In this document: positions 4,905 through 17,124 of the stretch, piece by piece | Layout of the letters: each line of letters opens with the position of its first letter | How positions within the stretch are numbered: position 1 is the first letter of the stretch | Assembly (NCBI GenBank): GCA_008080735.1 | Contig: SHMW01000036.1 | Location: 1 to 38,249, forward strand | Direction: 5' to 3' | Origin: Promethearchaeota archaeon | GTDB taxonomy: Archaea > Asgardarchaeota > Lokiarchaeia > Sigyniarchaeales > SOKP01 | Length of the DNA stretch: 38,249 bases | Position numbers and translations under genes: made by a program | The notes under the pieces: model-generated | What the model saw: the letters and a program-made list of their open reading frames with translations, nothing else | Told to the model about the DNA's origin: nothing | Database searches by the model: none

Positions 4905-5276
4905 ATGGTAAAATTATTTGGTAAGAAGACGAAACGGATTTTGGAAAAGTTTTCGGAAGAGGAAGTCATTCTTGTCTCGAAAGGAGCAAATTTTTTTGGT
5001 GTCGAATCAAAAAGTTATAAACAAATCAGAGGAAATGGTGTATTAATCCTTACGAGAGATCAACTATTTTTTCAATTATGGCTTCCCAAACGAATCATTA
5101 AAATACCTTTAGATAAGATAAGTAGTGTTGGAAAAACTACCCACCATTTACGAAAGACAAAATTCGTTGATCTATTAAAGGTAGAATTTAATAATAAAGA
5201 AGGAGAAGCAGATTCTGTTGCTTGGTGGTTGAGAAATTTAGATGAATGGATTGCAAAAATCCAAGCATTAATTTAA
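4905..5276 (+). CDS. Small PH/GRAM-like domain protein
   Basis: GVLILTRDQLFF...IPLDKISSV beta-strand pattern and a terminal W-containing helix (LDEWIAKI) typical of PH-like folds. Confidence 0.6.
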   Translation: MVKLFGKKTKRILEKFSEEEVILVSKGANFFGVESKSYKQIRGNGVLILTRDQLFFQLWLPKRIIKIPLDKISSVGKTTHHLRKTKFVDLLKVEFNNKEGEADSVAWWLRNLDEWIAKIQALI

Positions 5277-5339
5277 TAAAAAAAATTTTAGCTATTTTTA
5301 TTATAGAGATTACTGGTATATTATTGAGGTTAAATTGGT

Positions 5340-5693
5340 CTAAATCTTTCCGTGCTTTTTTAAATAATTTTCTTTACCCATTTCATACATTGCCATCATA
5401 TTTTTGGGAGAAAAACTCATAAATGTTCCTAAATCTCCTCCGGGACCTCCTGCTTTTATATCTAATTGATCACTATTCTGTGCAGCCCATTTCATGTAAA
5501 TCCATGAGGGAACATTTTCTTGAGATTTTGTAGCATCGAGATATTTGAAATACTCTGTTTCTGCATTATCTAGATCTCCATTATCATAATATAAATCGCC
5601 TAATTTGGCTCCAAGTTTAGGTTTCCATCCTTTTTTCTCAATTTTTTGGAGTTGTTTATCAATTTTTTTTTGCAACTTTGAAGGCATATCCAT
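5340..5693 (-). CDS. Hypothetical protein with one TPR-like helix pair
   Basis: 117-aa ORF filling the gap. LGDLYYDNGDLDNAETEY resembles a single TPR unit. Confidence 0.55.
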   Translation of the reverse strand: MDMPSKLQKKIDKQLQKIEKKGWKPKLGAKLGDLYYDNGDLDNAETEYFKYLDATKSQENVPSWIYMKWAAQNSDQLDIKAGGPGGDLGTFMSFSPKNMMAMYEMGKENYLKKHGKI

Positions 5694-5867
5694 TCACATT
5701 GTTTACTTTAGTTTGTTTTTACTTAAACAATATTGATCAACTATTATGTCAATTCCTATATTAATAAAGATTTACATAGATGGAAAAAATTTTATTGAAT
5801 ATATTCCCTACTACAAAATAATTTTTAGCAATAAAATCTTATAAAAAGTTAGTTGATAAATCATGTG

Positions 5868-7145
5868 CTATTTTTCTGCTTTTTTTCTACTGGTATCATA
5901 TAGTTCCATCAGAAGAAGTCCATGATAATACGAAATACTGTCAAAATAGCTATCTCCGTTATTTCGTCCCGCATTTACCAACGCCAATTGGGCATTGAGA
6001 GCAGCACGAATTAATAATTCAATACCTTTGTAAATCAAATTAGGACTCCACGTATTCTGGAATGGATTTGCCCACCACATTGGACAGGAATGGAGCCCCC
6101 TATCATAAAAGTATCGTGCGGTAGTATAATAATTTTCTACTGCCCAATCTTTCGTTAAATCTAAATTGTCTGCTAAATCCATAAGGTTATTCAAACTCTC
6201 CATAATTTTCCAATAATATTTATGAATATTATTTTCAGGATGCTTCCATAACGGATATGGGACTTCGCATTTTAGGTCTTCATATGAAGTGCTCCAACTG
6301 GAAGAAAGGGGTATGATATTATCTTCTGCATAAGGAAAATACTGATTTAAATTTGAGATAAATTCTACTTTAATATCATCCATACCATTTTTAGAGTCCT
6401 TTTGTTTCTGATAGTTGTTTTCTTCAATTAGTTTCAGAGTTTTTCCCAAAAATGCTTTTTCATAGTTCTTAATATGCCATCCAAAAGTCTCCCCATCCAT
6501 TGCGGTTATAACGTATGTATTATTGTTTTTCTCTTCATCCCCATTTTTATACATAGAACCCAATTCTTGAAGAAAGTTCTTCGCGGTTAATTTTTTAAAT
6601 GCAATTTTGTTACTGAGGATGTCATCCCTAAAATATAGTTTAAGTCCATTTGGAGATTGATAGATTTTATCGTAGCACCAATGTCTGGGACAAGAAATTC
6701 CGCTCATAATCACCCATTCATAACCGAATTCTTTGACAATTTTTGCAACTTGGGATGAGATCGCCATTTCAGGTGGAAAAAATCCTTTTTTATTCCATCC
6801 ATTTCCGAACACGCCTCGATTGGTCTCTTCATTTAATCTGATCTGTCGCTTGACCTCCTTTTTTGGAATAAGTGGCAGAATGGGATGGAATTTTGCAGTT
6901 CCTAAAATTTCTAACTTGTTTTCTCCCACTAAATCTCTTATTAAATCTAAAGTGTCTGACATGCCATATTCATTCAATAACTCTATCAGCACCCCATTTA
7001 TATTCAGGCAAAATTTAGCGTTGTCATAGCGCTTTAATTCATTAAATAATGGTTTATAACATTCTTCATTTATCTTCTTTAAGATATCTATATCTTGGGT
7101 AGGGGGCTGATATATGTGGAGTAATGGAGCCCAATATGTCGTCAT
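5868..7145 (-). CDS. Glycoside hydrolase family 57 (alpha-amylase/amylopullulanase-like)
   Basis: Conserved GH57 regions HIYQP, HPILPL, FFPPEMA (nucleophile Glu), DGETFGWH (acid/base Asp) and HSCPMWW. Confidence 0.9.
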   Translation of the reverse strand: MTTYWAPLLHIYQPPTQDIDILKKINEECYKPLFNELKRYDNAKFCLNINGVLIELLNEYGMSDTLDLIRDLVGENKLEILGTAKFHPILPLIPKKEVKRQIRLNEETNRGVFGNGWNKKGFFPPEMAISSQVAKIVKEFGYEWVIMSGISCPRHWCYDKIYQSPNGLKLYFRDDILSNKIAFKKLTAKNFLQELGSMYKNGDEEKNNNTYVITAMDGETFGWHIKNYEKAFLGKTLKLIEENNYQKQKDSKNGMDDIKVEFISNLNQYFPYAEDNIIPLSSSWSTSYEDLKCEVPYPLWKHPENNIHKYYWKIMESLNNLMDLADNLDLTKDWAVENYYTTARYFYDRGLHSCPMWWANPFQNTWSPNLIYKGIELLIRAALNAQLALVNAGRNNGDSYFDSISYYHGLLLMELYDTSRKKAEK

Positions 7146-7304
7146 TTTTATCCTTATTAGATTTTATCGGTTTAGAAATTTAAATGTATGCATTCTCTAA
7201 TAATTTTTTACTGATATGATACAGCTAATTTCCACTTATAAATAATCTAGAAAAACTTAAGAACGTGAGTATTATATATCAATACAAAAAAGATTTACCC
7301 GAAT

Positions 7305-8432
7305 TTATTTTTCAATGATGTTTTCTTTAATGGCAGTTCCAAAATGAGTTGCTCCGGGACCTAAATGGACTAATATTTTATCTCCGACCTCAAGATTCAC
7401 AACCGACACCGCATCTCCCTCAGGATCGACTAATCGTATCGTCTCAGCATTTTGACAGACACAATTAATCGGGACAGATTGGCCATCTTTTTCAGCCACC
7501 ATTTCAAATCTGAGCATCGGGCGAGTTTCTATTTTTACTCTGCCCACGGAAACAATGCGGGCCCTTCCCTTTGTATTAACCACGATCACTCTTTCCCCTC
7601 CTTTTAGTTCGCTTAAGTATTTCGTTCTATAAACCTCTTTACTTTCTGTATCCTCTTGAGGAACTAGTATGTATGCTGATACATCTCCAGCATTGACACG
7701 AAAGGGGCGAGATGCTACAAATTGAGTTTCGAAAACTTCGGCATGGACGAGCGCAAATCCCATGGCAGTACTTCCAATAAGCATACCTTCCCCAGGACGG
7801 AGCAGCGAAGTAGTATCTACACATACCCTATCACTTTCGGGGATTTTTTGGATTCCTTTAATTTCCGCCCTAGTTAGTTCTATAGTGAACGAGGTTCCCA
7901 CCAATTTTTTAAGTTCGATTATTTGATTTGCATTTGTTGGTCTAAAAAGGATGCCATCAACTCCAATTTCTAATGTTTTTAACATTAACTCCGCTTCCTC
8001 AACAGATTCTACTTCTGCTATTAATTCTGTATCCTTTTTATACATTTCAGCAATTAGGTTTTCAAAAGGAATTATTTTCCAATCACTCGCACTCACGATT
8101 AATAAGTTGATTTTAGTGATATTTGATAACTGCTTTATTTCAGCTTCATCCTCTTTTGTGGTCAATTCTTTGTAAAAAGCTATGTCCTGGGTTTCTGTGG
8201 AAGTATTTAAAAATTCATTAATCTGCTCTTTATTTTCAAACAATAGATAATCTGGTTTCAAATCTTTTTGTTTTGAAATTGTTTTAACGCGCTCAATATC
8301 TTTAAATTCATCGTGGGTTGTAGTACTGATGAGAAAATTTAAAATATCTCTATTAAATGCTTCTTGGACTAATTCCTTAAATTCTTCTGTTTTTTCTGTA
8401 AAATCTAAAATAATTCGTTTCATATCCATCAA
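7305..8432 (-). CDS. 3-dehydroquinate synthase II (archaeal type, AroB')
   Basis: WKIIPFENLIA, LEIGVDG, DRVCVDT, SRPFRVNAG, GRVKIETRP, QNAETIRL and HFG..I.E.IIEK. Confidence 0.95.
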   Translation of the reverse strand: MMDMKRIILDFTEKTEEFKELVQEAFNRDILNFLISTTTHDEFKDIERVKTISKQKDLKPDYLLFENKEQINEFLNTSTETQDIAFYKELTTKEDEAEIKQLSNITKINLLIVSASDWKIIPFENLIAEMYKKDTELIAEVESVEEAELMLKTLEIGVDGILFRPTNANQIIELKKLVGTSFTIELTRAEIKGIQKIPESDRVCVDTTSLLRPGEGMLIGSTAMGFALVHAEVFETQFVASRPFRVNAGDVSAYILVPQEDTESKEVYRTKYLSELKGGERVIVVNTKGRARIVSVGRVKIETRPMLRFEMVAEKDGQSVPINCVCQNAETIRLVDPEGDAVSVVNLEVGDKILVHLGPGATHFGTAIKENIIEK

Positions 8433-8578
8433 AATTTGGACTCTAGTTGATTTTTTTAATAGAATAAACTTTATTTCTTAAGATAGAATGTGTAGTATTC
8501 AAAATAAATTTTAAATTACTAAAATTATATGTATATAACTAGGTAGAAAAAAAAATAACTTAATAGGTGCTAAAAAGT

Positions 8579-9229
8579 TTGGGACTAAAGGACAAATTGT
8601 TCCCTAAAAAGGGGAAGGACAAGGACGTTATAATCACTAAAGCGAAAAGCCACATTCGAAAATTGGCAATGATGAATAAGAACTATTCGAAAAGAGCGGA
8701 AATCAGTAGAAAGAATGCGAAAATTGCCTTACAACGCGGCGAAAAATCTCGAGCAAAAAACTATCTTATACAATATAAGAATTATCAAACGAAAATTGAC
8801 CGGACGAATAATATTAGGTCAAAAATCGAGCGTCAAATTCAAGCAATAGAAGAGGGGCAATTGATTTCACAAACTGGCGATTTAATGGGAGGGATGAGAG
8901 ATGAATTGAAAGAAATAGCCACAACTGCATCACCTACCAGAGCTGCTGAAATTAATGAGGACGCTGAATTATATGTCACCGAAATAGAAGAGGCTGCGGA
9001 TATTTTGGCGGGCGACCCTGAAATCGATTTGGCAATAGACGTGAGTGAAGAATTAGAACAATTAGAGACTGAAATGTTGTTAGAGAAAGGAGGGGAAATG
9101 CCAGAAGTTCCATCTGATGAATTACAGTATATTTCAGAAATTGATACCGAAGAAGTGCAACCTGAACTGCAAAATAAAGAGAAATTGCAGGAAGAGATTG
9201 AAAAGCTCCGAAAAGAGTTAGAAGAATAA
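8579..9229 (+). CDS. Snf7-domain ESCRT-III subunit (Vps20/Vps32/Vps60-like class)
   Basis: Basic N-terminal helical hairpin (AKIALQRGEKSRAKNYLIQYKNYQ...IERQIQAIEE), acidic C-terminal half, EELEQLE and MIM2-like MPEVP. TTG at 8579 (MGLKDKLFPKKGK) is preferred because AGGTG lies just upstream; the track start is GTG 8567. Confidence 0.88.
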   Translation: MGLKDKLFPKKGKDKDVIITKAKSHIRKLAMMNKNYSKRAEISRKNAKIALQRGEKSRAKNYLIQYKNYQTKIDRTNNIRSKIERQIQAIEEGQLISQTGDLMGGMRDELKEIATTASPTRAAEINEDAELYVTEIEEAADILAGDPEIDLAIDVSEELEQLETEMLLEKGGEMPEVPSDELQYISEIDTEEVQPELQNKEKLQEEIEKLRKELEE

Positions 9230-10351: not shown

Positions 10352-12580
10352 TTAAGAAAAATATTTCTTATTGTCATACTTTCGTCCAATATTTTTTATT
10401 GCTTCATTTTCTCGTATACGCTCGTCAAGCGAACGGATTTTTTTATTAATCATATAAAGATCTTGCTTTAAATTTTTAAATGCCCTTAAATAATCAACTT
10501 CTGTAATTTTTCCCTCATCGAATTTTCTATCTAAGTTTTTCAGCGTTTCATGAACACTGAATCTCTCCTTTTTAAGTTCAGTCATTTTTTTATGACAATC
10601 ATCACGCTCTCCCAAATGATCCTTATTTTGATAATTTTTCGGATCAAATGAAAGATTATCATCTCTAAAATATTCCGATAAATAATTTCGAGTGTAATCC
10701 TGAGTCGAAGGGTCAAGTCGAGGATTATTGTAAAACGACTCGGCAGATCGGCTATAGGTTTCTTGGTTAACATAATCATTAAATGCATTTCTCAAATTAT
10801 TATTGGGGAATCCTTGTTTTTGAAATCGTTCAAGCTGCTTCATTAAAATATTTTTTTCTTCAGAATTACTTGGAATTGGCTCATTTCTTGAAAAATTTCG
10901 AGGATTGTAGTTTTGATACCGGTTTGGATAGAGAATGTTCTGAAAACGGAAATTTTGAGAATGATTTGAATTATTAGGATATTGAGTATCATTAGGGGCG
11001 ATTGATGATGTTCCATATTGATGATTGTTATAATGTGGGACTCGACTCTGAGAATTGTATGGGTGATTTTGGTTATTCGGATAACTTTGCTGATATGGAG
11101 GTTCAATATACGGGTTTATATAGTAATTCGGTGGTGGAGGCGTGTTTCGGTTGTCGTTATGGTAATTATTTTGTCTATGAGGGTATTGGTTTTGTCGCGA
11201 TTGATAAGAATTGTTTTCATAACGTATGGGAGCTTGTTGATATCCTTGATTATAATTACCTGAATTTGGGTTTTGAGAGGAATATTCTGGATAGTCTCCA
11301 TTAGCTCTATTGGCATAATTCAGATTATTTTTTTCAGTATCATGGTTTTTTTCATTGTTAATCTTACATTTTAAGCTAAAAAATGAATTTATACCATCTT
11401 CGATGAAATTTTTTAAATTTGTAAGATCTGCATTGAGTTTCTCAATTTTTTTGGCAGATTCTTTATCATAAATTGCCGTTTCATCAAAATTTCGAGCCAA
11501 AAGAATATATTCAATAACTCTGGAAATCGCTTTATTTGGCAATGAAAATTCATATTCTCCATAAGCGAATTTGATATATAATTTTTTAAACAATTTTCCC
11601 TTTTCCTTTATCCTTTGAAGATCATCTACAGGTGCCTTGAAAATTAATTCTTGTTTTTTTTTGAAAAATCCATATTCATGAACAAATGATAAGTCTAGAT
11701 TAGTGATAAACAGAATCCCGTTTCTTCTTTTAAAAATATCTTGATAATTTGTACCGCTGGATAATTTTGCATTAATCGCATAAACGGGTTTCTCATCATC
11801 TGCTAAATTGATGAAACGTTTATACTCTGTAAAGTATTTTGTGATTTTATCTATAAACGAGAGATTCTTTTTAATGGATTCAATATCATTATTGATTGTT
11901 CCAATATTATCTTCTATAAACTCATCAATTGATTCTCGACTTCTGTATAAATTTTCTAAAATCCCTTCTATAATTCTAATACTCGTATTAGGCTGCGAGT
12001 AAATATCAAAGAAATACTCCTTATTAAGAGATAGATGATGGAAATGTATGCTAATCTTCTCTAATAACTGATCTTCTATATATTTCAATAATTTAAATAA
12101 TGAAAAAAGTTCTGATTCCATTTTAGGAAAATGATAACATCGTATAGGTGGGGCTCGGGCTTTTTTCACTTTTTCCCGTATCATATAAAGATTATTTATA
12201 ACTTCTCTGAAAGGATCCAAAAAATTTCTGGTCTCTTTGATTAGCTCTAAAAAAGTTTGCTCTAATTTCTCTTTTTTTTCATAAATATTTATAATTCGAT
12301 GCGAATGGCATTTAGGACAAGATTTTATGTATTGTGTAACGTTTATCACATTTTCACTCCCACAATCTGCACAAATTTTAATCTTCCCTATTTTTTTTTC
12401 CTCAGATTCTTGAATTTGAATATTTTTAGAATTACAATCTTGGCACACTAAGGATTCAACTTTATCATCATCAAGACAGTCAGAGCAGCAGCTCGCACCG
12501 CAATTTTCACAATAATAAGCTAAAGGTTCTCTACCTTGGCAGAATCTACAAAAATGATTCTCTATTAAATGCTCTGACAT
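10352..12580 (-). CDS. Multidomain protein: B-box/Zn-ribbon cluster, coiled coil, PH-like domain, N/Q/Y/P-rich low-complexity region, steadiness-box-like C-terminus
   Basis: 742-aa ORF with CRFC, CENC..CC.DC, CQDC, CADC and CPKC; GILFITNLDLSF...APVDDLQRI PH-like pattern; N/Q/Y-rich tract; terminal HETLKNLDRKFDEGKITEVDYLRAFKNL. Domain identities are by eye. Confidence 0.7.
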   Translation of the reverse strand: MSEHLIENHFCRFCQGREPLAYYCENCGASCCSDCLDDDKVESLVCQDCNSKNIQIQESEEKKIGKIKICADCGSENVINVTQYIKSCPKCHSHRIINIYEKKEKLEQTFLELIKETRNFLDPFREVINNLYMIREKVKKARAPPIRCYHFPKMESELFSLFKLLKYIEDQLLEKISIHFHHLSLNKEYFFDIYSQPNTSIRIIEGILENLYRSRESIDEFIEDNIGTINNDIESIKKNLSFIDKITKYFTEYKRFINLADDEKPVYAINAKLSSGTNYQDIFKRRNGILFITNLDLSFVHEYGFFKKKQELIFKAPVDDLQRIKEKGKLFKKLYIKFAYGEYEFSLPNKAISRVIEYILLARNFDETAIYDKESAKKIEKLNADLTNLKNFIEDGINSFFSLKCKINNEKNHDTEKNNLNYANRANGDYPEYSSQNPNSGNYNQGYQQAPIRYENNSYQSRQNQYPHRQNNYHNDNRNTPPPPNYYINPYIEPPYQQSYPNNQNHPYNSQSRVPHYNNHQYGTSSIAPNDTQYPNNSNHSQNFRFQNILYPNRYQNYNPRNFSRNEPIPSNSEEKNILMKQLERFQKQGFPNNNLRNAFNDYVNQETYSRSAESFYNNPRLDPSTQDYTRNYLSEYFRDDNLSFDPKNYQNKDHLGERDDCHKKMTELKKERFSVHETLKNLDRKFDEGKITEVDYLRAFKNLKQDLYMINKKIRSLDERIRENEAIKNIGRKYDNKKYFS

Positions 12581-12843: not shown

Positions 12844-13320
12844 ATGGTAGAATGTTATCCTATTAAGAAAATATCTTATTATGGGACATTTGTATTTCTA
12901 GATTTAGATAGGTTTCGCAATTGCATTGAAAAAAAAGGATGGTCAGAATTTAAGCCAAATTCTATTAGTGGATTTTTAACTGAAGAGTTGGAAAAATATG
13001 TAAGAAAATATCGCGGTTTAGTTATATGGGGATTGAATAAGAGGAGAGGTACTGAAGAAGCGATTTTATTTTTTCATCAAAAATCGAAAATAATTTATGA
13101 ATTGTTCGAAAATATTAGGCGAAAAATAAAAAGATTAGCAGAAAAATTAGATGCTCCAACAAGCTTAAGTATAGGCATGGTAAGAGGGGCAGCACCATTA
13201 ATTAAACAAATCAAATCTCATAATAAAAAAGAATTTAAAAAGGATCCAAATATTTTAATGGCGTATAGGGCACTTAAAAAAGCCAAAAAGAATGGAGGAA
13301 ATTGTATTGTCCAACTCTAA
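12844..13320 (+). CDS. Stand-alone divergent GGDEF-like nucleotidyl cyclase-fold protein
   Basis: FLDLDRFR, RRGTEEAIL, LSIGMV and AYRALKKAKKNGGNCIV correspond in order to the GGDEF hallmarks DxDxFK, RxGGEEF, SIG and ADxALYxAKxxGRN. Confidence 0.75.
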   Translation: MVECYPIKKISYYGTFVFLDLDRFRNCIEKKGWSEFKPNSISGFLTEELEKYVRKYRGLVIWGLNKRRGTEEAILFFHQKSKIIYELFENIRRKIKRLAEKLDAPTSLSIGMVRGAAPLIKQIKSHNKKEFKKDPNILMAYRALKKAKKNGGNCIVQL

Positions 13321-13358
13321 AATGTATGAAAATAAACCTAAAAATAATCGATAGATAA

Positions 13359-13934
13359 ATGACTATTATCGATACTCATATTCATCTTGAAGGGCGCTCT
13401 TCATGTTCCGTTTTACCCGCACAAAGATTATACGGGAATTTATCTCCTCGATTGGATGGAATTTGCATCACAGATCATTGGGTTCTTAAGGAGTATAAAA
13501 AATTTTCCCTAACAGAGTTTAAAGTCTTCTTCGGAGTAGAGTTAAGAAGCACGGAAGGGGATATATTAGCTTATGGTTTAGATATGCTTCCCTCCCAAGA
13601 TTTAACCACTAAACAAATGATTAATTTTATTCATATGCATAACGGAGTTGCTGTGGCAGCACATCCCTTTTCCAATCGTCATCTTGCGTTTCATGATGCC
13701 GTTTTTAATTATAATTTCGATGCAATAGAGATAAACGGCGCTATAGGAAAGAAAAGCAATGAATTAGCAAAACAAGCGGCAATTTCAATGAATTTGCCCA
13801 TGACGGGGGGGAGTGATGCTCATTCAGTAGAACAATTGAACAGCATAGCGACGCATTTTGATACTAAGATAGAATCAGTAAGAGATATAGTAAATGCTAT
13901 CAGAGCTAAAAAATGTCGTCCTATAAATATCTAG
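13359..13934 (+). CDS. PHP-family metal-dependent phosphoesterase
   Basis: DTHIH, ITDH, GVE, AAHPF, AIEING and GGSDAH. Confidence 0.92.
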   Translation: MTIIDTHIHLEGRSSCSVLPAQRLYGNLSPRLDGICITDHWVLKEYKKFSLTEFKVFFGVELRSTEGDILAYGLDMLPSQDLTTKQMINFIHMHNGVAVAAHPFSNRHLAFHDAVFNYNFDAIEINGAIGKKSNELAKQAAISMNLPMTGGSDAHSVEQLNSIATHFDTKIESVRDIVNAIRAKKCRPINI

Positions 13935-14042: not shown

Positions 14043-14336
14043 TTATTTAATAATCTTTATTACTTCTCCTAAAGCTTGACCAGGCAATCCTGCCTTTTTA
14101 AAATTAGCTCTCACTGCTCCATTATTTCCATGGGCACGACTAATTTTACCTTTCAGTTCTTTGCCAGCTGGACTATACCATACAACGGTCCGACCAATAA
14201 GCTTATTTGCTTCCTTTCTGGTATTAATGCTCGGAAAAACAAGGATACACTGTTTTGGATGTATAACGTGTCTTGATCTCCTATAATTGGCAATCCTTCC
14301 TTCCATGCCGATAACAGTTGTTTTATTTTTACTCAT
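14043..14336 (-). CDS. rpl35ae: Large ribosomal subunit protein eL33 (L35Ae)
   Basis: YRRS..., LIGRTVVW, GKISRAHGNNGAVRANF...LPGQALG. Confidence 0.95.
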   Translation of the reverse strand: MSKNKTTVIGMEGRIANYRRSRHVIHPKQCILVFPSINTRKEANKLIGRTVVWYSPAGKELKGKISRAHGNNGAVRANFKKAGLPGQALGEVIKIIK

Positions 14337-14459
14337 GGCTATAATGTTCTTTTCCTACTATTTAACAAACAAAGTATTTAAAAAAATAAAAAATTTTAGG
14401 TTTGGATTCAAATTTAATTACTCTAAGATGTAATAATTATTTGAAATTAATTTTTTAAC

Positions 14460-15860
14460 TTGGTAGCTATGAAAGCAGGATTTTCAAAAATTAAAATAAC
14501 ACCAGAGAATTATATAGGGATACCTATGGCAGGATATTCGCGTCCAGATCCTTGTTTAGGTAAGCTAGATGATATATTTGTAAGAGGAATCCTAATTGAA
14601 AGTGAGGAATCGCAAGGTAATAACCGATTTCTGCTCTTACTCTCATTTGATCTCTTGAAACTTCCGAGATCCATTGTCTCCTATTTCAGTGATAGAATTA
14701 TAGAAAAATATGACTGGATTTCAAGAGAAAATATACTATTTCATGCGACTCATACTCATTCTGCTCCTGATCTAACTGGAGAGTTTCATTGGCCTGGTGG
14801 AACACTTTCAGTAGTCAAGGGTATTATGTTTGGAGTAAATAAAAATGATAAGTATATTGTATGGATAAGTCACCAAGTATTAAAATTGATAGGGAAATTA
14901 AAAAAATCGTTAAGAACAGCAAAATTGGCTTGGAGAAAGGAGATTTTCAATCCAAATCTAGTGATTAATAGAAGACACCCATCAAGAGTACCAGAGACCG
15001 AACTTGGAATAATATCATTTAAAGATCTAGATGATACTTTATTTGGGCTGATTATTAATTATCAGTGCCATCCTACCACTCTCTCATTATTCAATAATAA
15101 ACTTTCCGCAGACTTTCCCGGACAGGTTATCTCTAAAATTTCAGAACTAACAGATAATAATGTTAAGAGTATATACTTCAATGGACCTGCCGGGGATTTA
15201 AATCCTATTACTACATGTGGTACTGATTACAAGGGTTTAGAACAAAATAAATCTCCAATCTATACCCAATTGGGAACTTATGAACATACCAAAAAGCTCG
15301 GATTTCAGATCGCAAAAGAAGCATTAGCATTAAGTTATTCAATTCCAGATGAAAACTATAATAAAATGATCAAAATCCGCTCCAATATAAAGATACTTTC
15401 AATACCTTTTAGAGATGCTCGATATTTCTCGTCTGAATGGTTTCAAAACAAGTTAATCCATGCTATCAAAAAGTATATATTATTACCTGTAATTTTGAGT
15501 CTCTATGATAAAAATAATTTTCCTATCTTCCAAATCGAGAAACAAGGAGCAAGAATTTATGCAAAAACTCTTTTTCAATTTATTGAATTCTCCATTGGAG
15601 AAGACAAAGACAAAAAATTTAATATTTTCACTGTTCCTGGAGAATTATTCGAAGATATTGGTAATTCTCTTCTTGAAAAATCTCCCGCTGGAAAGAAAAA
15701 TAGTATTTTAATTCAGAATGCAAATGATTGGATTGCGTATCTTTTTCCAATCGATGAATATGTAGAGATAGGGGGATATGAACCAGTCGCGAGTTTTGGT
15801 CCCTTATGTGGATATTATATTGAACGAGAAATATTAGATTTTTTTAAAAACCATACTTAA
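14460..15860 (+). CDS. Neutral/alkaline ceramidase-like Zn amidohydrolase family protein
   Basis: KAGFSKIKITP, PMAGY, HATHTHSAP, CHPT, SADFPG, NGPAGD, PGELF and GGYE. The start may be ATG 14469. Confidence 0.82.
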   Translation: MVAMKAGFSKIKITPENYIGIPMAGYSRPDPCLGKLDDIFVRGILIESEESQGNNRFLLLLSFDLLKLPRSIVSYFSDRIIEKYDWISRENILFHATHTHSAPDLTGEFHWPGGTLSVVKGIMFGVNKNDKYIVWISHQVLKLIGKLKKSLRTAKLAWRKEIFNPNLVINRRHPSRVPETELGIISFKDLDDTLFGLIINYQCHPTTLSLFNNKLSADFPGQVISKISELTDNNVKSIYFNGPAGDLNPITTCGTDYKGLEQNKSPIYTQLGTYEHTKKLGFQIAKEALALSYSIPDENYNKMIKIRSNIKILSIPFRDARYFSSEWFQNKLIHAIKKYILLPVILSLYDKNNFPIFQIEKQGARIYAKTLFQFIEFSIGEDKDKKFNIFTVPGELFEDIGNSLLEKSPAGKKNSILIQNANDWIAYLFPIDEYVEIGGYEPVASFGPLCGYYIEREILDFFKNHT

Positions 15861-15921
15861 TCGGCATACTATAAGAGAAAATGAAGATAATTATTAAGAA
15901 AAAGAGTATATTGGCTTTTCT

Positions 15922-17124
15922 CTATATTATTAAATCATACGCTTTTTGCCATGCATTTTGGTTGATCTGATGCAATTTTTGTTCAAAATCTTTGTGATCT
16001 AATTCATCTTCCTCCTCAACGAGATTCTGAACGTCTATGTAAACATTTCTTTCAATGGAATCCATTTCATTTACATATGTACGCTTATTTTTCTCGTTTA
16101 CTAATTTTTTAAAGGGATTGATGAATTTTTGATGGCGTATCCAATACCAGTCTTCATTCTTCTGTTTATAAGGACCTGGTTCTAATGCTTTCTGTCTGTT
16201 AATCGGAAAAACATAGGGTTTATACATACTTAAACAAGGTTTGGAACTTCCGGTAAACCAATGAATGGACGTTTTTCCATTCGATTTCAATTCAGAAACT
16301 TGAGACCCAGTCGTCTGAAATTGTCCATGCATACATAAACCGGCTTCATGTTCACGTAGAAATTCCATCATCATATCAACGGTGACATTCCCAATATTTT
16401 CTTCAAGTAATTCATTAGATTTTACTTGTCTATAAGTTAAAGGAACCTCCTCGGGAACAGATCTTTGAGAAAAAATTCGAGCAAAATCAAAATCTTCCTC
16501 CGATTGACAATAATCTTCTTCAATAGCATGCTGTACAATTCCTTCTCGTCTTAAATCTCCCTTTCCTCGGATCGACAAGTTATTGGAAATGGATCGTGCC
16601 TTCTCAACCTTTTCAGCCACCCACCACTCATCTGCAGTTTCCAAAACATAAGCTTCCTTTTGATCAGCAATAAGATACGAGTTGTGATAATACCATCCAT
16701 GACCTTCATATGCACAATCACCACCTTGCCCGTGCTCCTCCAATAACTCAGTTATAACTGATAAAGCTTCTTGTGCGTTTTTTGCTCGTTCAAGCCCTAG
16801 TCTTAATAGATCCATCCCAAGGAGACCTTCTTTTTTTAGTTCCTCTTTTGTATAAACCGCTTCGTTTCCAATCGCTACTCCAAATTCGTTAGCTCCCATT
16901 TCTGCTCCCCACATCCAATATGGTTGACTTAAAATTATCTCATAAGTTTGTTCAACTTGGGGAATAGATATATAGGTACACTGAACATCTTCTCCTTTCT
17001 CGTAGGTTTGGCGGGATACAGAAGTTATTAATTGTATTTCATCTTGAGGTCTGTCGGAATTTTTCCCAAAAATCGTATGTCCTTTGATTGTGGCTTCAGG
17101 TAATGCTACTAACGTATCACACAT
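15922..17124 (-). CDS. Secernin/peptidase C69 family Ntn hydrolase (copy 1)
   Basis: N-terminal MCDT, GKNSDRP, WMWGAEMGANEFGVAIGNEAV, LLGMDLLRLGLER and YHNSYLIAD. Confidence 0.92.
   Translation of the reverse strand: MCDTLVALPEATIKGHTIFGKNSDRPQDEIQLITSVSRQTYEKGEDVQCTYISIPQVEQTYEIILSQPYWMWGAEMGANEFGVAIGNEAVYTKEELKKEGLLGMDLLRLGLERAKNAQEALSVITELLEEHGQGGDCAYEGHGWYYHNSYLIADQKEAYVLETADEWWVAEKVEKARSISNNLSIRGKGDLRREGIVQHAIEEDYCQSEEDFDFARIFSQRSVPEEVPLTYRQVKSNELLEENIGNVTVDMMMEFLREHEAGLCMHGQFQTTGSQVSELKSNGKTSIHWFTGSSKPCLSMYKPYVFPINRQKALEPGPYKQKNEDWYWIRHQKFINPFKKLVNEKNKRTYVNEMDSIERNVYIDVQNLVEEEDELDHKDFEQKLHQINQNAWQKAYDLII

Follow-up and report, generated by a model that had tools for sequence, protein, structure and literature searches.

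A Lokiarchaeial Znr_CC_PH_SB protein, a probable ESCRT-I-type adaptor linked to an ESCRT-III gene

The locus and the protein family

The stretch of 38,249 nucleotides at positions 1 to 38,249 of contig SHMW01000036.1, from the Promethearchaeota archaeon assembly GCA_008080735.1 (Lokiarchaeia; Sigyniarchaeales), which we call the window, encodes a 742-residue protein on the minus strand at positions 10352-12580. The gene, hereafter the adaptor gene, is a single uninterrupted open reading frame (ORF) of 742 codons plus the stop. Its ATG start agrees with the consensus of close homologues (MSE...), and the translation is exactly that of the GenBank entry MBD3213736.1, a 'hypothetical protein' from a Lokiarchaeota metagenome-assembled genome (MAG). 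[quoted passage not shown] An earlier note on this DNA, made from the sequence alone, had proposed a multidomain protein with zinc fingers, a long helical region, a PH-like domain, a low-complexity linker and a steadiness-box-like end, and both the reading frame and all these parts hold up.

The note had not recognised the architecture from characterised proteins, but the family is a published one. Makarova et al. 2024 (mBio, PMC10936438) described, from sequence analysis only, the asCOG family cog.011556 or 'Znr_CC_PH_SB' (also spelled Znr_PH_CC_SB), with three Zn ribbons, a PH domain, a coiled coil and a steadiness box. According to these authors the family is not found in eukaryotes, is likely ancestral in Asgardarchaeota and is 'a likely ESCRT-I component', with a PH domain 'expected to be membrane associated', so that both the architecture and the proposed role in ESCRT-I have been in print since 2024. 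Lu et al. 2023 (bioRxiv 10.1101/2023.07.25.550441) used cog.011556 as a 'Steadiness/Vps23 box' family. A 'freestanding steadiness box protein' of Hatano et al. 2022, a yeast two-hybrid partner of Vps28 and Vps22, may or may not belong here; RING, CC and PH labels are given in the legend to Supplementary Fig. 8 of that study. Table S2 of PMC10936438 lists a member of 650 residues in Lokiarchaeum GC14_75 (As_004-p_01543), with the gene order L35Ae, cog.011556 adaptor, MetE and convergent Vps20 ESCRT-III gene. The window has the same order of adaptor, MetE-like gene and convergent Vps20-type Snf7 gene, as do two of the homologous loci that we compared (L009 and L010). In L009 both the order (L35Ae, adaptor, MetE, convergent Vps20) and the size are identical to those of the GC14_75 entry; its protein is 47% identical to the adaptor, and the link to the GC14_75 protein itself is by gene order, size and domain description.

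All the features that describe cog.011556, i.e., zinc ribbons, a helical segment, a PH domain and a steadiness box, are found in the window protein, and the gene is a member of Znr_CC_PH_SB over its whole length, as judged from the ORF, the sequence identity and the homologues. Our reading, to which we give a probability of about 0.65, is that this protein is a Lokiarchaeial member of the Asgard-specific family Znr_CC_PH_SB and most likely an ESCRT-I-type adaptor. In a word-indexed search of 5.8 billion proteins, 261 relatives pass E ≤ 0.001; the top 120 of these are full-length without exception, with 45-75% identity, and where they are named they are called 'B-box zinc finger protein' or 'hypothetical protein' and come from Loki- or Promethearchaeota MAGs. 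A profile search of 1.84 billion representatives gave 91 proteins at E ≤ 1e-30, and all the named ones are Asgard, Heimdallarchaeaceae included. We used two alignments throughout: one of 41 close, Loki-type homologues, and a phylum-wide one of 15 sequences (19-53% identity) that represent seven or more Asgard families. In the 41-row alignment, residues 1-410 are gap-free and highly conserved, residues 420-540 are gappy and variable, and the last ~80 residues are conserved.

A steadiness box homologous to those of Vps23 and Vps28

The C-terminal hairpin, delimited by profiles, a structural model and Foldseek, spans residues 654-737 with its turn at G690 (10370-10621, minus strand). A model of residues 622-742 has helices at 654-688 and 694-737, with a predicted local distance difference test (pLDDT) of 93-98 over residues 662-721 and lower values towards both ends. 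The stretch at 10445-10560, i.e., residues 675-711, in which the earlier note had seen a gap-free fit to the Vps23 steadiness-box pattern, lies inside this hairpin. Pfam searches with the single sequence give sub-threshold matches only (zf-B_box, Vps23_core, APG6_N and KxDL), with Vps23_core at 18.4-19.3 bits and below its gathering cut-off of 26.8, and they do not decide the nature of the C-terminus. When the C-terminal profile of the family was compared with 177,635 distinct PDB sequences, the top three matches were the C-terminal core of yeast Vps23 (E 0.002-0.004), and the N-termini of Vps28 were among the next ones. The alignment with yeast Vps23 is gap-free across the whole steadiness box, in agreement with the fit seen in the note. 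Across the 41 close homologues, Vps23_core matches 39 (best E 4e-6), APG6_N 37, CdvA seven and SHOCT five. The SHOCT-like hairpin, which the note had named as the alternative for the C-terminus, is thus far behind Vps23_core, the family of the top PDB matches.

The homology is decided by three other comparisons. A hidden Markov model (HMM) of the SB only matches a canonical Asgard UEV-Vps23 on its SB, with E 3.5e-14; this UEV-Vps23 itself scores 31.2 bits with Vps23_core, above the cut-off. Searched against the 19,310 stop-to-stop ORFs of the genome, the same HMM finds three at E < 1, which are the adaptor, a 614-residue protein and a Vps28-like protein. In hhalign, the hairpin aligns with the Vps28-like family hairpin to hairpin, with a probability of 83% and E 9e-6. 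On these profiles the hairpin is a Vps23-type steadiness box, homologous to the SBs of both Vps23 and Vps28. Structural comparison is consistent with this, as the top 11 PDB matches of Foldseek are all chains of the ESCRT-I headpiece, with a root-mean-square deviation (rmsd) of 0.7-1.4 Å in 10 of the 11; the E-values of 0.09-0.3 are weak, which is what a hairpin of 60 residues would be expected to give.

The 614-residue protein is encoded elsewhere in the genome (L081:3311-5152, i.e., contig C87 of our genome G000 at 14310-16151, plus strand). It matches the SB HMM at residues ~555-614 (E 1.4e-5) and has no Pfam match. Judging from this similarity it may be a multidomain Lokiarchaeial SB protein and a candidate for a third hairpin of the headpiece.

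The earlier note had suggested a multimer prediction with the Vps28 homologue of the genome, and such a prediction yields a contact. The modelled complex of SB residues 649-742 with residues 1-105 of the Vps28-like protein, both given with alignments, has a score of 0.76 over three runs, whereas the highest of three controls stands at 0.00. Of 80 solved complexes, 58 attain this mark, as do two of 110 mismatched pairs; the counts are approximate because our own alignments were used. Contact agreement between the three runs is at least 94% and the pLDDT of the partner at least 78; in the predicted interface, residues 9-42 of the Vps28-like protein face residues ~687-713 of the adaptor. Another protein of the genome, of 785 residues (L083:2942-5296, contig C2, minus strand), has winged-helix/PCI, DDRGK and E3-UFM1-ligase-like matches together with a C-terminal Vps28_C-like segment (23.5 bits), and would join a Vps28 C-domain to modules like those of the UFM1 system.

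Zinc module, helical bundle, PH domain and linker

The remaining parts are also encoded on the minus strand. The zinc module (residues 1-98; 12287-12580) is delimited by the alignments, by an AlphaFold2 (AF2) model and by sub-threshold Pfam matches. The six CxxC-type pairs that had been noted at ~12290-12555 are C11/14, C24/27, C32/35, C46/49, C70/73 and C88/91 (~12308-12550), and all 12 cysteines are invariant both in the close homologues (41/41) and in the phylum-wide sequences (15/15). They would be enough for up to three Zn sites. The module may be made of three ribbons, or of a B-box-like cross-brace formed by the first four pairs and followed by one ribbon. The AF2 model has beta hairpins in these residues, the zf-B_box match on residues 7-36 reaches 21.0 bits (cut-off 24.1), and several zinc-ribbon models of Pfam also match below threshold.

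The AF2 model covers residues 1-412 and was built from the 41-row alignment (mean pLDDT 84.9, predicted template modelling score 0.73). It resolves the long helical region of the earlier note into three helices, the 'CC' of the family name (11825-12286), at residues 99-141, 154-194 and 201-252 (41-52 residues each). The pLDDT of this block is mostly 77-96, falling to 70 near the second turn, and the model suggests that the helices form an antiparallel bundle. We tried to class this bundle as a DH domain, in the manner of the DH-PH proteins of the RhoGEF type, and rejected the assignment. Foldseek gives such a match E 6e-6, yet the TM score is ~0.25 and the rmsd ~20 Å, and the rigid match to Trio is limited to the last helix of the bundle and the PH domain (Z 13.0, rmsd 2.9 Å, model residues 238-367); the three-helix bundle is therefore not classed as a DH domain.

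The next domain (residues ~253-370; 11471-11824), defined by the AF2 model, Foldseek, VIA-align and the alignment, has PH topology in the model, with a seven-stranded sandwich (265-346) and a capping C-terminal helix (352-363). It carries a GxLxxT...F motif of the GRAM type and two basic loops (KRR 284-286 and KKK 307-309). Searched against the PDB with the model of residues 1-412, Foldseek finds PH-containing proteins only, and in a search of 48,161 chains that is independent of Foldseek, domains of the PH superfold are nearly all of the 50 matches listed. VIA-align matches to this superfold have Z 10.5-13 and rmsd 2.3-3.5 Å over ~100-126 residues. Lam6 and MTMR2 match with their GRAM-type PH domains at Z 12.2 (rmsd 2.4-2.6 Å over 105-108 residues), and human EAP45 with its GLUE domain at Z 10.5 (rmsd 3.5 Å over 107 residues). 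These comparisons confirm, for the modelled structure, that the middle domain has a PH fold. Of the PH/GLUE-like domain that the earlier note placed at 11490-11810 (residues ~257-363), the fold stands, and a specific kinship to GLUE is not shown. The GLUE score lies within the general spread of PH folds and GRAM scores higher, so that the proposed fusion of ESCRT-I and ESCRT-II modules keeps its ESCRT-I steadiness box, whereas the relation to Vps36 is an analogy and not a shown homology. The PH domain is followed by conserved helices (residues 371-412; 11345-11470), seen in the alignment and in the AF2 model.

The N/Q/Y/P tract of the earlier note is the linker of 241 residues between these helices and the steadiness box (residues 413-653; 10622-11344), delimited by composition and alignments. 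It is rich in N (21%), Y (12%), P (10%) and Q (10%). Among the sequences sampled for the phylum-wide alignment, a long prion-like linker is found only in the family of the window and in a sister family that belongs to the same order; in the other Asgard lineages the linker is much shorter and the proteins have ~500-530 residues. Three islands in the linker (541-560, 575-585 and 621-640; ~10661-10958) are nearly invariant among the Loki-type homologues, for instance at F544, Q556-N557-Y558, L579, L583, N632-H633-L634-S635 and F638, and are candidates for short linear binding motifs. A PPxY motif (PPNY at 483) was considered and set aside: 18 of the 41 close homologues have it, the lineages with a short linker all lack it, and about one in four would be expected to have it by chance, given the composition. 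The region also contains short ORFs at 10843-11106 (minus strand, 87 residues, in another frame than the adaptor), 11002-11304 (plus strand, 100 residues) and 11018-11263 (plus strand, 81 residues), most likely artefacts of the biased composition.

Gene context, alternatives and comparison with known systems

The N-terminal profile of the adaptor has a match in 192 of the 301 genomes sampled in the phylum. The frequency is high in the family of the window (64/68) and in another large family (72/76), and no match was found in several other Asgard families (0/28, 0/21 and 0/11). In the survey of the architecture across Asgard genomes that the earlier note had proposed, 18 sampled loci include the C-terminus of the homologue, and 16 of them have the N-terminal module and the SB on one ORF; two divergent copies of one family do not reach the threshold of the SB HMM built from Loki sequences.

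The association with ESCRT-III is more constant than the rest of the neighbourhood. The Snf7/Vps20-type gene, identified by Pfam, by the order in Table S2 and by the comparison of loci, is one of two Snf7-family genes found in the genome, the other being on contig C112. Of 19 loci from seven or more Asgard families, 18 have a Snf7 gene in convergent orientation at the 3' end of the adaptor gene. Among the 80 Loki-type loci compared, 70 have enough flanking sequence, and a convergent Snf7 gene is found in 68 of these, in 38 with a MetE-like gene in between and in 30 without it. The MetE-like gene is missing from this position in those 30 and in every other lineage sampled. It seems to have been inserted, as a lineage-specific event, between the two members of a conserved convergent pair and is probably a passenger, not a part of the system. 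In one locus (L077) the order is UEV-Vps23, Vps28, EAP30, Vps25, Vps4, Snf7, Snf7 and adaptor, and L071 is similar. In the genome of the window the rest of the ESCRT genes are dispersed (EAP30, Vps25 and Vps4 on contig C75, with Vps22/EAP30 at L082:3162-3884, and the Vps28-like gene on C15 at 47533-48174) and the pair of adaptor and Snf7 is kept together. This strongly conserved context supports the earlier idea of an adaptor that feeds into ESCRT.

Some observations on these loci stand apart. L067, with an adaptor homologue at 6679-8943 (minus strand), is the sole one of the 19 sampled loci without a convergent Snf7 gene; its convergent neighbour encodes a 469-residue Gtr1/RagA/Arf-like small GTPase (5250-6659, plus strand). 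Six records titled Nanopelagicaceae bacterium, Odinarchaeota, Thorarchaeota or Hermodarchaeota (L138, i.e., DATKTW010000152.1, and L124, L132, L105, L153 and L131) carry a Loki-type gene of ~58-62% identity in Loki-type synteny, and probably these MAG labels are wrong or the contigs mis-binned. On the other side of the adaptor gene, the window has at 12844-13934 (plus strand) an ORF of 158 residues without Pfam match, followed by one of 191 residues that matches PHP_C.

Several points weigh against an ESCRT-I-type adaptor. All Pfam matches of the window protein are under the curated cut-offs, its best Vps23_core score of 19.3 bits ties with that of the generic coiled-coil model APG6_N (19.7 bits), and the reach of APG6_N among the members makes Pfam alone non-decisive. 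A geometry-only aligner gives Z 10.4 to the CdvA filament and Z 9.2-9.6 to Vps23, and dozens of unrelated or designed hairpins score alike. The modelled complex may reflect the memory that the predictor has of solved Vps23-C:Vps28-N structures, and its score speaks for likeness and not for binding. The N-terminal profile search of PDB sequences gave no significant match that would point to a function of the zinc module, and the case for membrane binding by the PH domain is limited to the domain's fold and basic loops. As convergent genes are not transcribed together, the linkage to Snf7 is an association and not a mechanism. Finally, our full-text search of the literature library turned up no experiment on the family, nor any further paper that names it.

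The constancy of the Snf7 neighbour would also suit a role like that of CdvA, which recruits CdvB in Thermoproteota, or of the eukaryotic Bro1/ALIX: the helical bundle and the PH domain would bind the membrane and directly recruit the neighbouring Vps20-type ESCRT-III, without ESCRT-I or ESCRT-II. No gene other than Snf7 keeps its linkage to the adaptor throughout the phylum, and Snf7 does so even in Loki genomes whose remaining ESCRT cluster is on other contigs. In pure geometry, the hairpin is closest to the CdvA filament of S. islandicus (rmsd 0.8 Å over 72 residues), some members match the CdvA model of Pfam, and the similarity between CdvA and SB hairpins has been reported in the literature. 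However, this geometric match ties with many unrelated hairpins, sequence profiles favour the SBs of Vps23 and Vps28 above CdvA, a contact with Vps28 is modelled, and a complete ESCRT-I/II set lies beside the gene in L077. We regard such a role, the main alternative to our reading, as unlikely. Similarly doubtful is its fuller version, in which the adaptor would be a dedicated direct recruiter of the tail-to-tail Vps20-type ESCRT-III by a CdvA-like, ESCRT-II-independent route, with the N/Q/Y-rich linker of Lokiarchaeia adding membrane clustering of the condensate type.

The two other explanations seem to us very improbable. The name 'B-box zinc finger protein' on many homologues suggests a TRIM-like scaffold, in which a B-box followed by a coiled coil would serve conjugation of the ubiquitin or UFM type instead of membrane remodelling. 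In this direction point the zf-B_box matches in 22 of the 41 members (best E 0.0018, all below cut-off) and the top match of the N-terminal profile among PDB sequences, the B-box2 and coiled coil of KAP1/TRIM28 (E 0.42). Yet every one of these matches is sub-threshold or non-significant, no E2 or ubiquitin gene adjoins the adaptor in the window, and the PH domain, the SB hairpin and the linkage to ESCRT-III would be left unexplained. The C-terminus could instead be a generic coiled-coil or SHOCT-like hairpin without ESCRT function, its resemblance to Vps23 being compositional; the near equality of APG6_N and Vps23_core among the members, the few SHOCT matches and a geometric search that does not single out ESCRT-I are in its favour. 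We consider this largely refuted by the SB HMM, which matches a canonical UEV-Vps23 and three ORFs of the genome but none of its many other coiled-coil proteins, as well as by the rank of Vps23 among PDB sequences and by an ESCRT gene context conserved across the phylum.

Under our reading of the protein as an ESCRT-I-type adaptor, the helical bundle and the basic PH domain would hold it at the membrane, the zinc module would bind a cargo or partner, and the flexible linker would tether the steadiness-box hairpin. We infer that this hairpin packs on the N-terminal hairpin of the Vps28-like protein to give an ESCRT-I-like headpiece, which the 614-residue SB protein would perhaps also join, and which would lead on to ESCRT-II, the neighbouring Vps20-type ESCRT-III and Vps4. 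No known organisms are more closely related to eukaryotes than the Asgard archaea, and a question of interest is how their ESCRT machinery finds membranes and cargo. We know of no other ESCRT-linked protein in Asgard archaea that pairs a PH fold of the lipid-binding type with an ESCRT-I assembly hairpin, a combination that makes the family well suited to bench work on the upstream end of the archaeal ESCRT pathway. Since the architecture and the ESCRT-I role were published in 2024, little is added here as discovery. What is added, and should be useful for the design of experiments, is the strictness of the linkage to Snf7, the restriction of the long linker to the order of the window among the sequences sampled, and the modelled contact between the SB and the Vps28-like protein.

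Compared with the published Znr_CC_PH_SB, the window protein has the same domain order, phylum and gene order and the same proposed ESCRT-I role with a membrane-associated PH domain. Nothing essential differs; its 742 residues place it at the long end of the family, as a result of the linker of its order. Vps36/EAP45 likewise combines a PH-fold domain with zinc fingers (NZF) in an upstream ESCRT component, but the window protein has no EAP30 match in Pfam and its zinc module is N-terminal, not inserted in the PH domain. CdvA would resemble the adaptor as a membrane-binding upstream factor, shares with it an SB-like helical hairpin and a gene that adjoins an ESCRT-III gene, and differs from it by a PRC-barrel and the lack of Zn and PH modules. 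The closest parallel at the C-terminus is Vps23/TSG101, whose steadiness-box hairpin is homologous to that of the adaptor; the SB of the latter is modelled as packed against the N-terminus of Vps28, in the way seen for Vps23 in 2F6M, 2CAZ, 2P22 and 6VME. Unlike Vps23/TSG101, the adaptor has no UEV domain (no UEV/UQ_con match in Pfam, and no UEV, PF05743, was found in the 93%-complete genome) and lacks a stalk helix immediately ahead of the SB. In their place it carries zinc, helical and PH modules, with the helical bundle N-terminal to the PH domain. In L077 the adaptor lies beside a true UEV-Vps23, and there it is an additional SB subunit, not the orthologue of Vps23.

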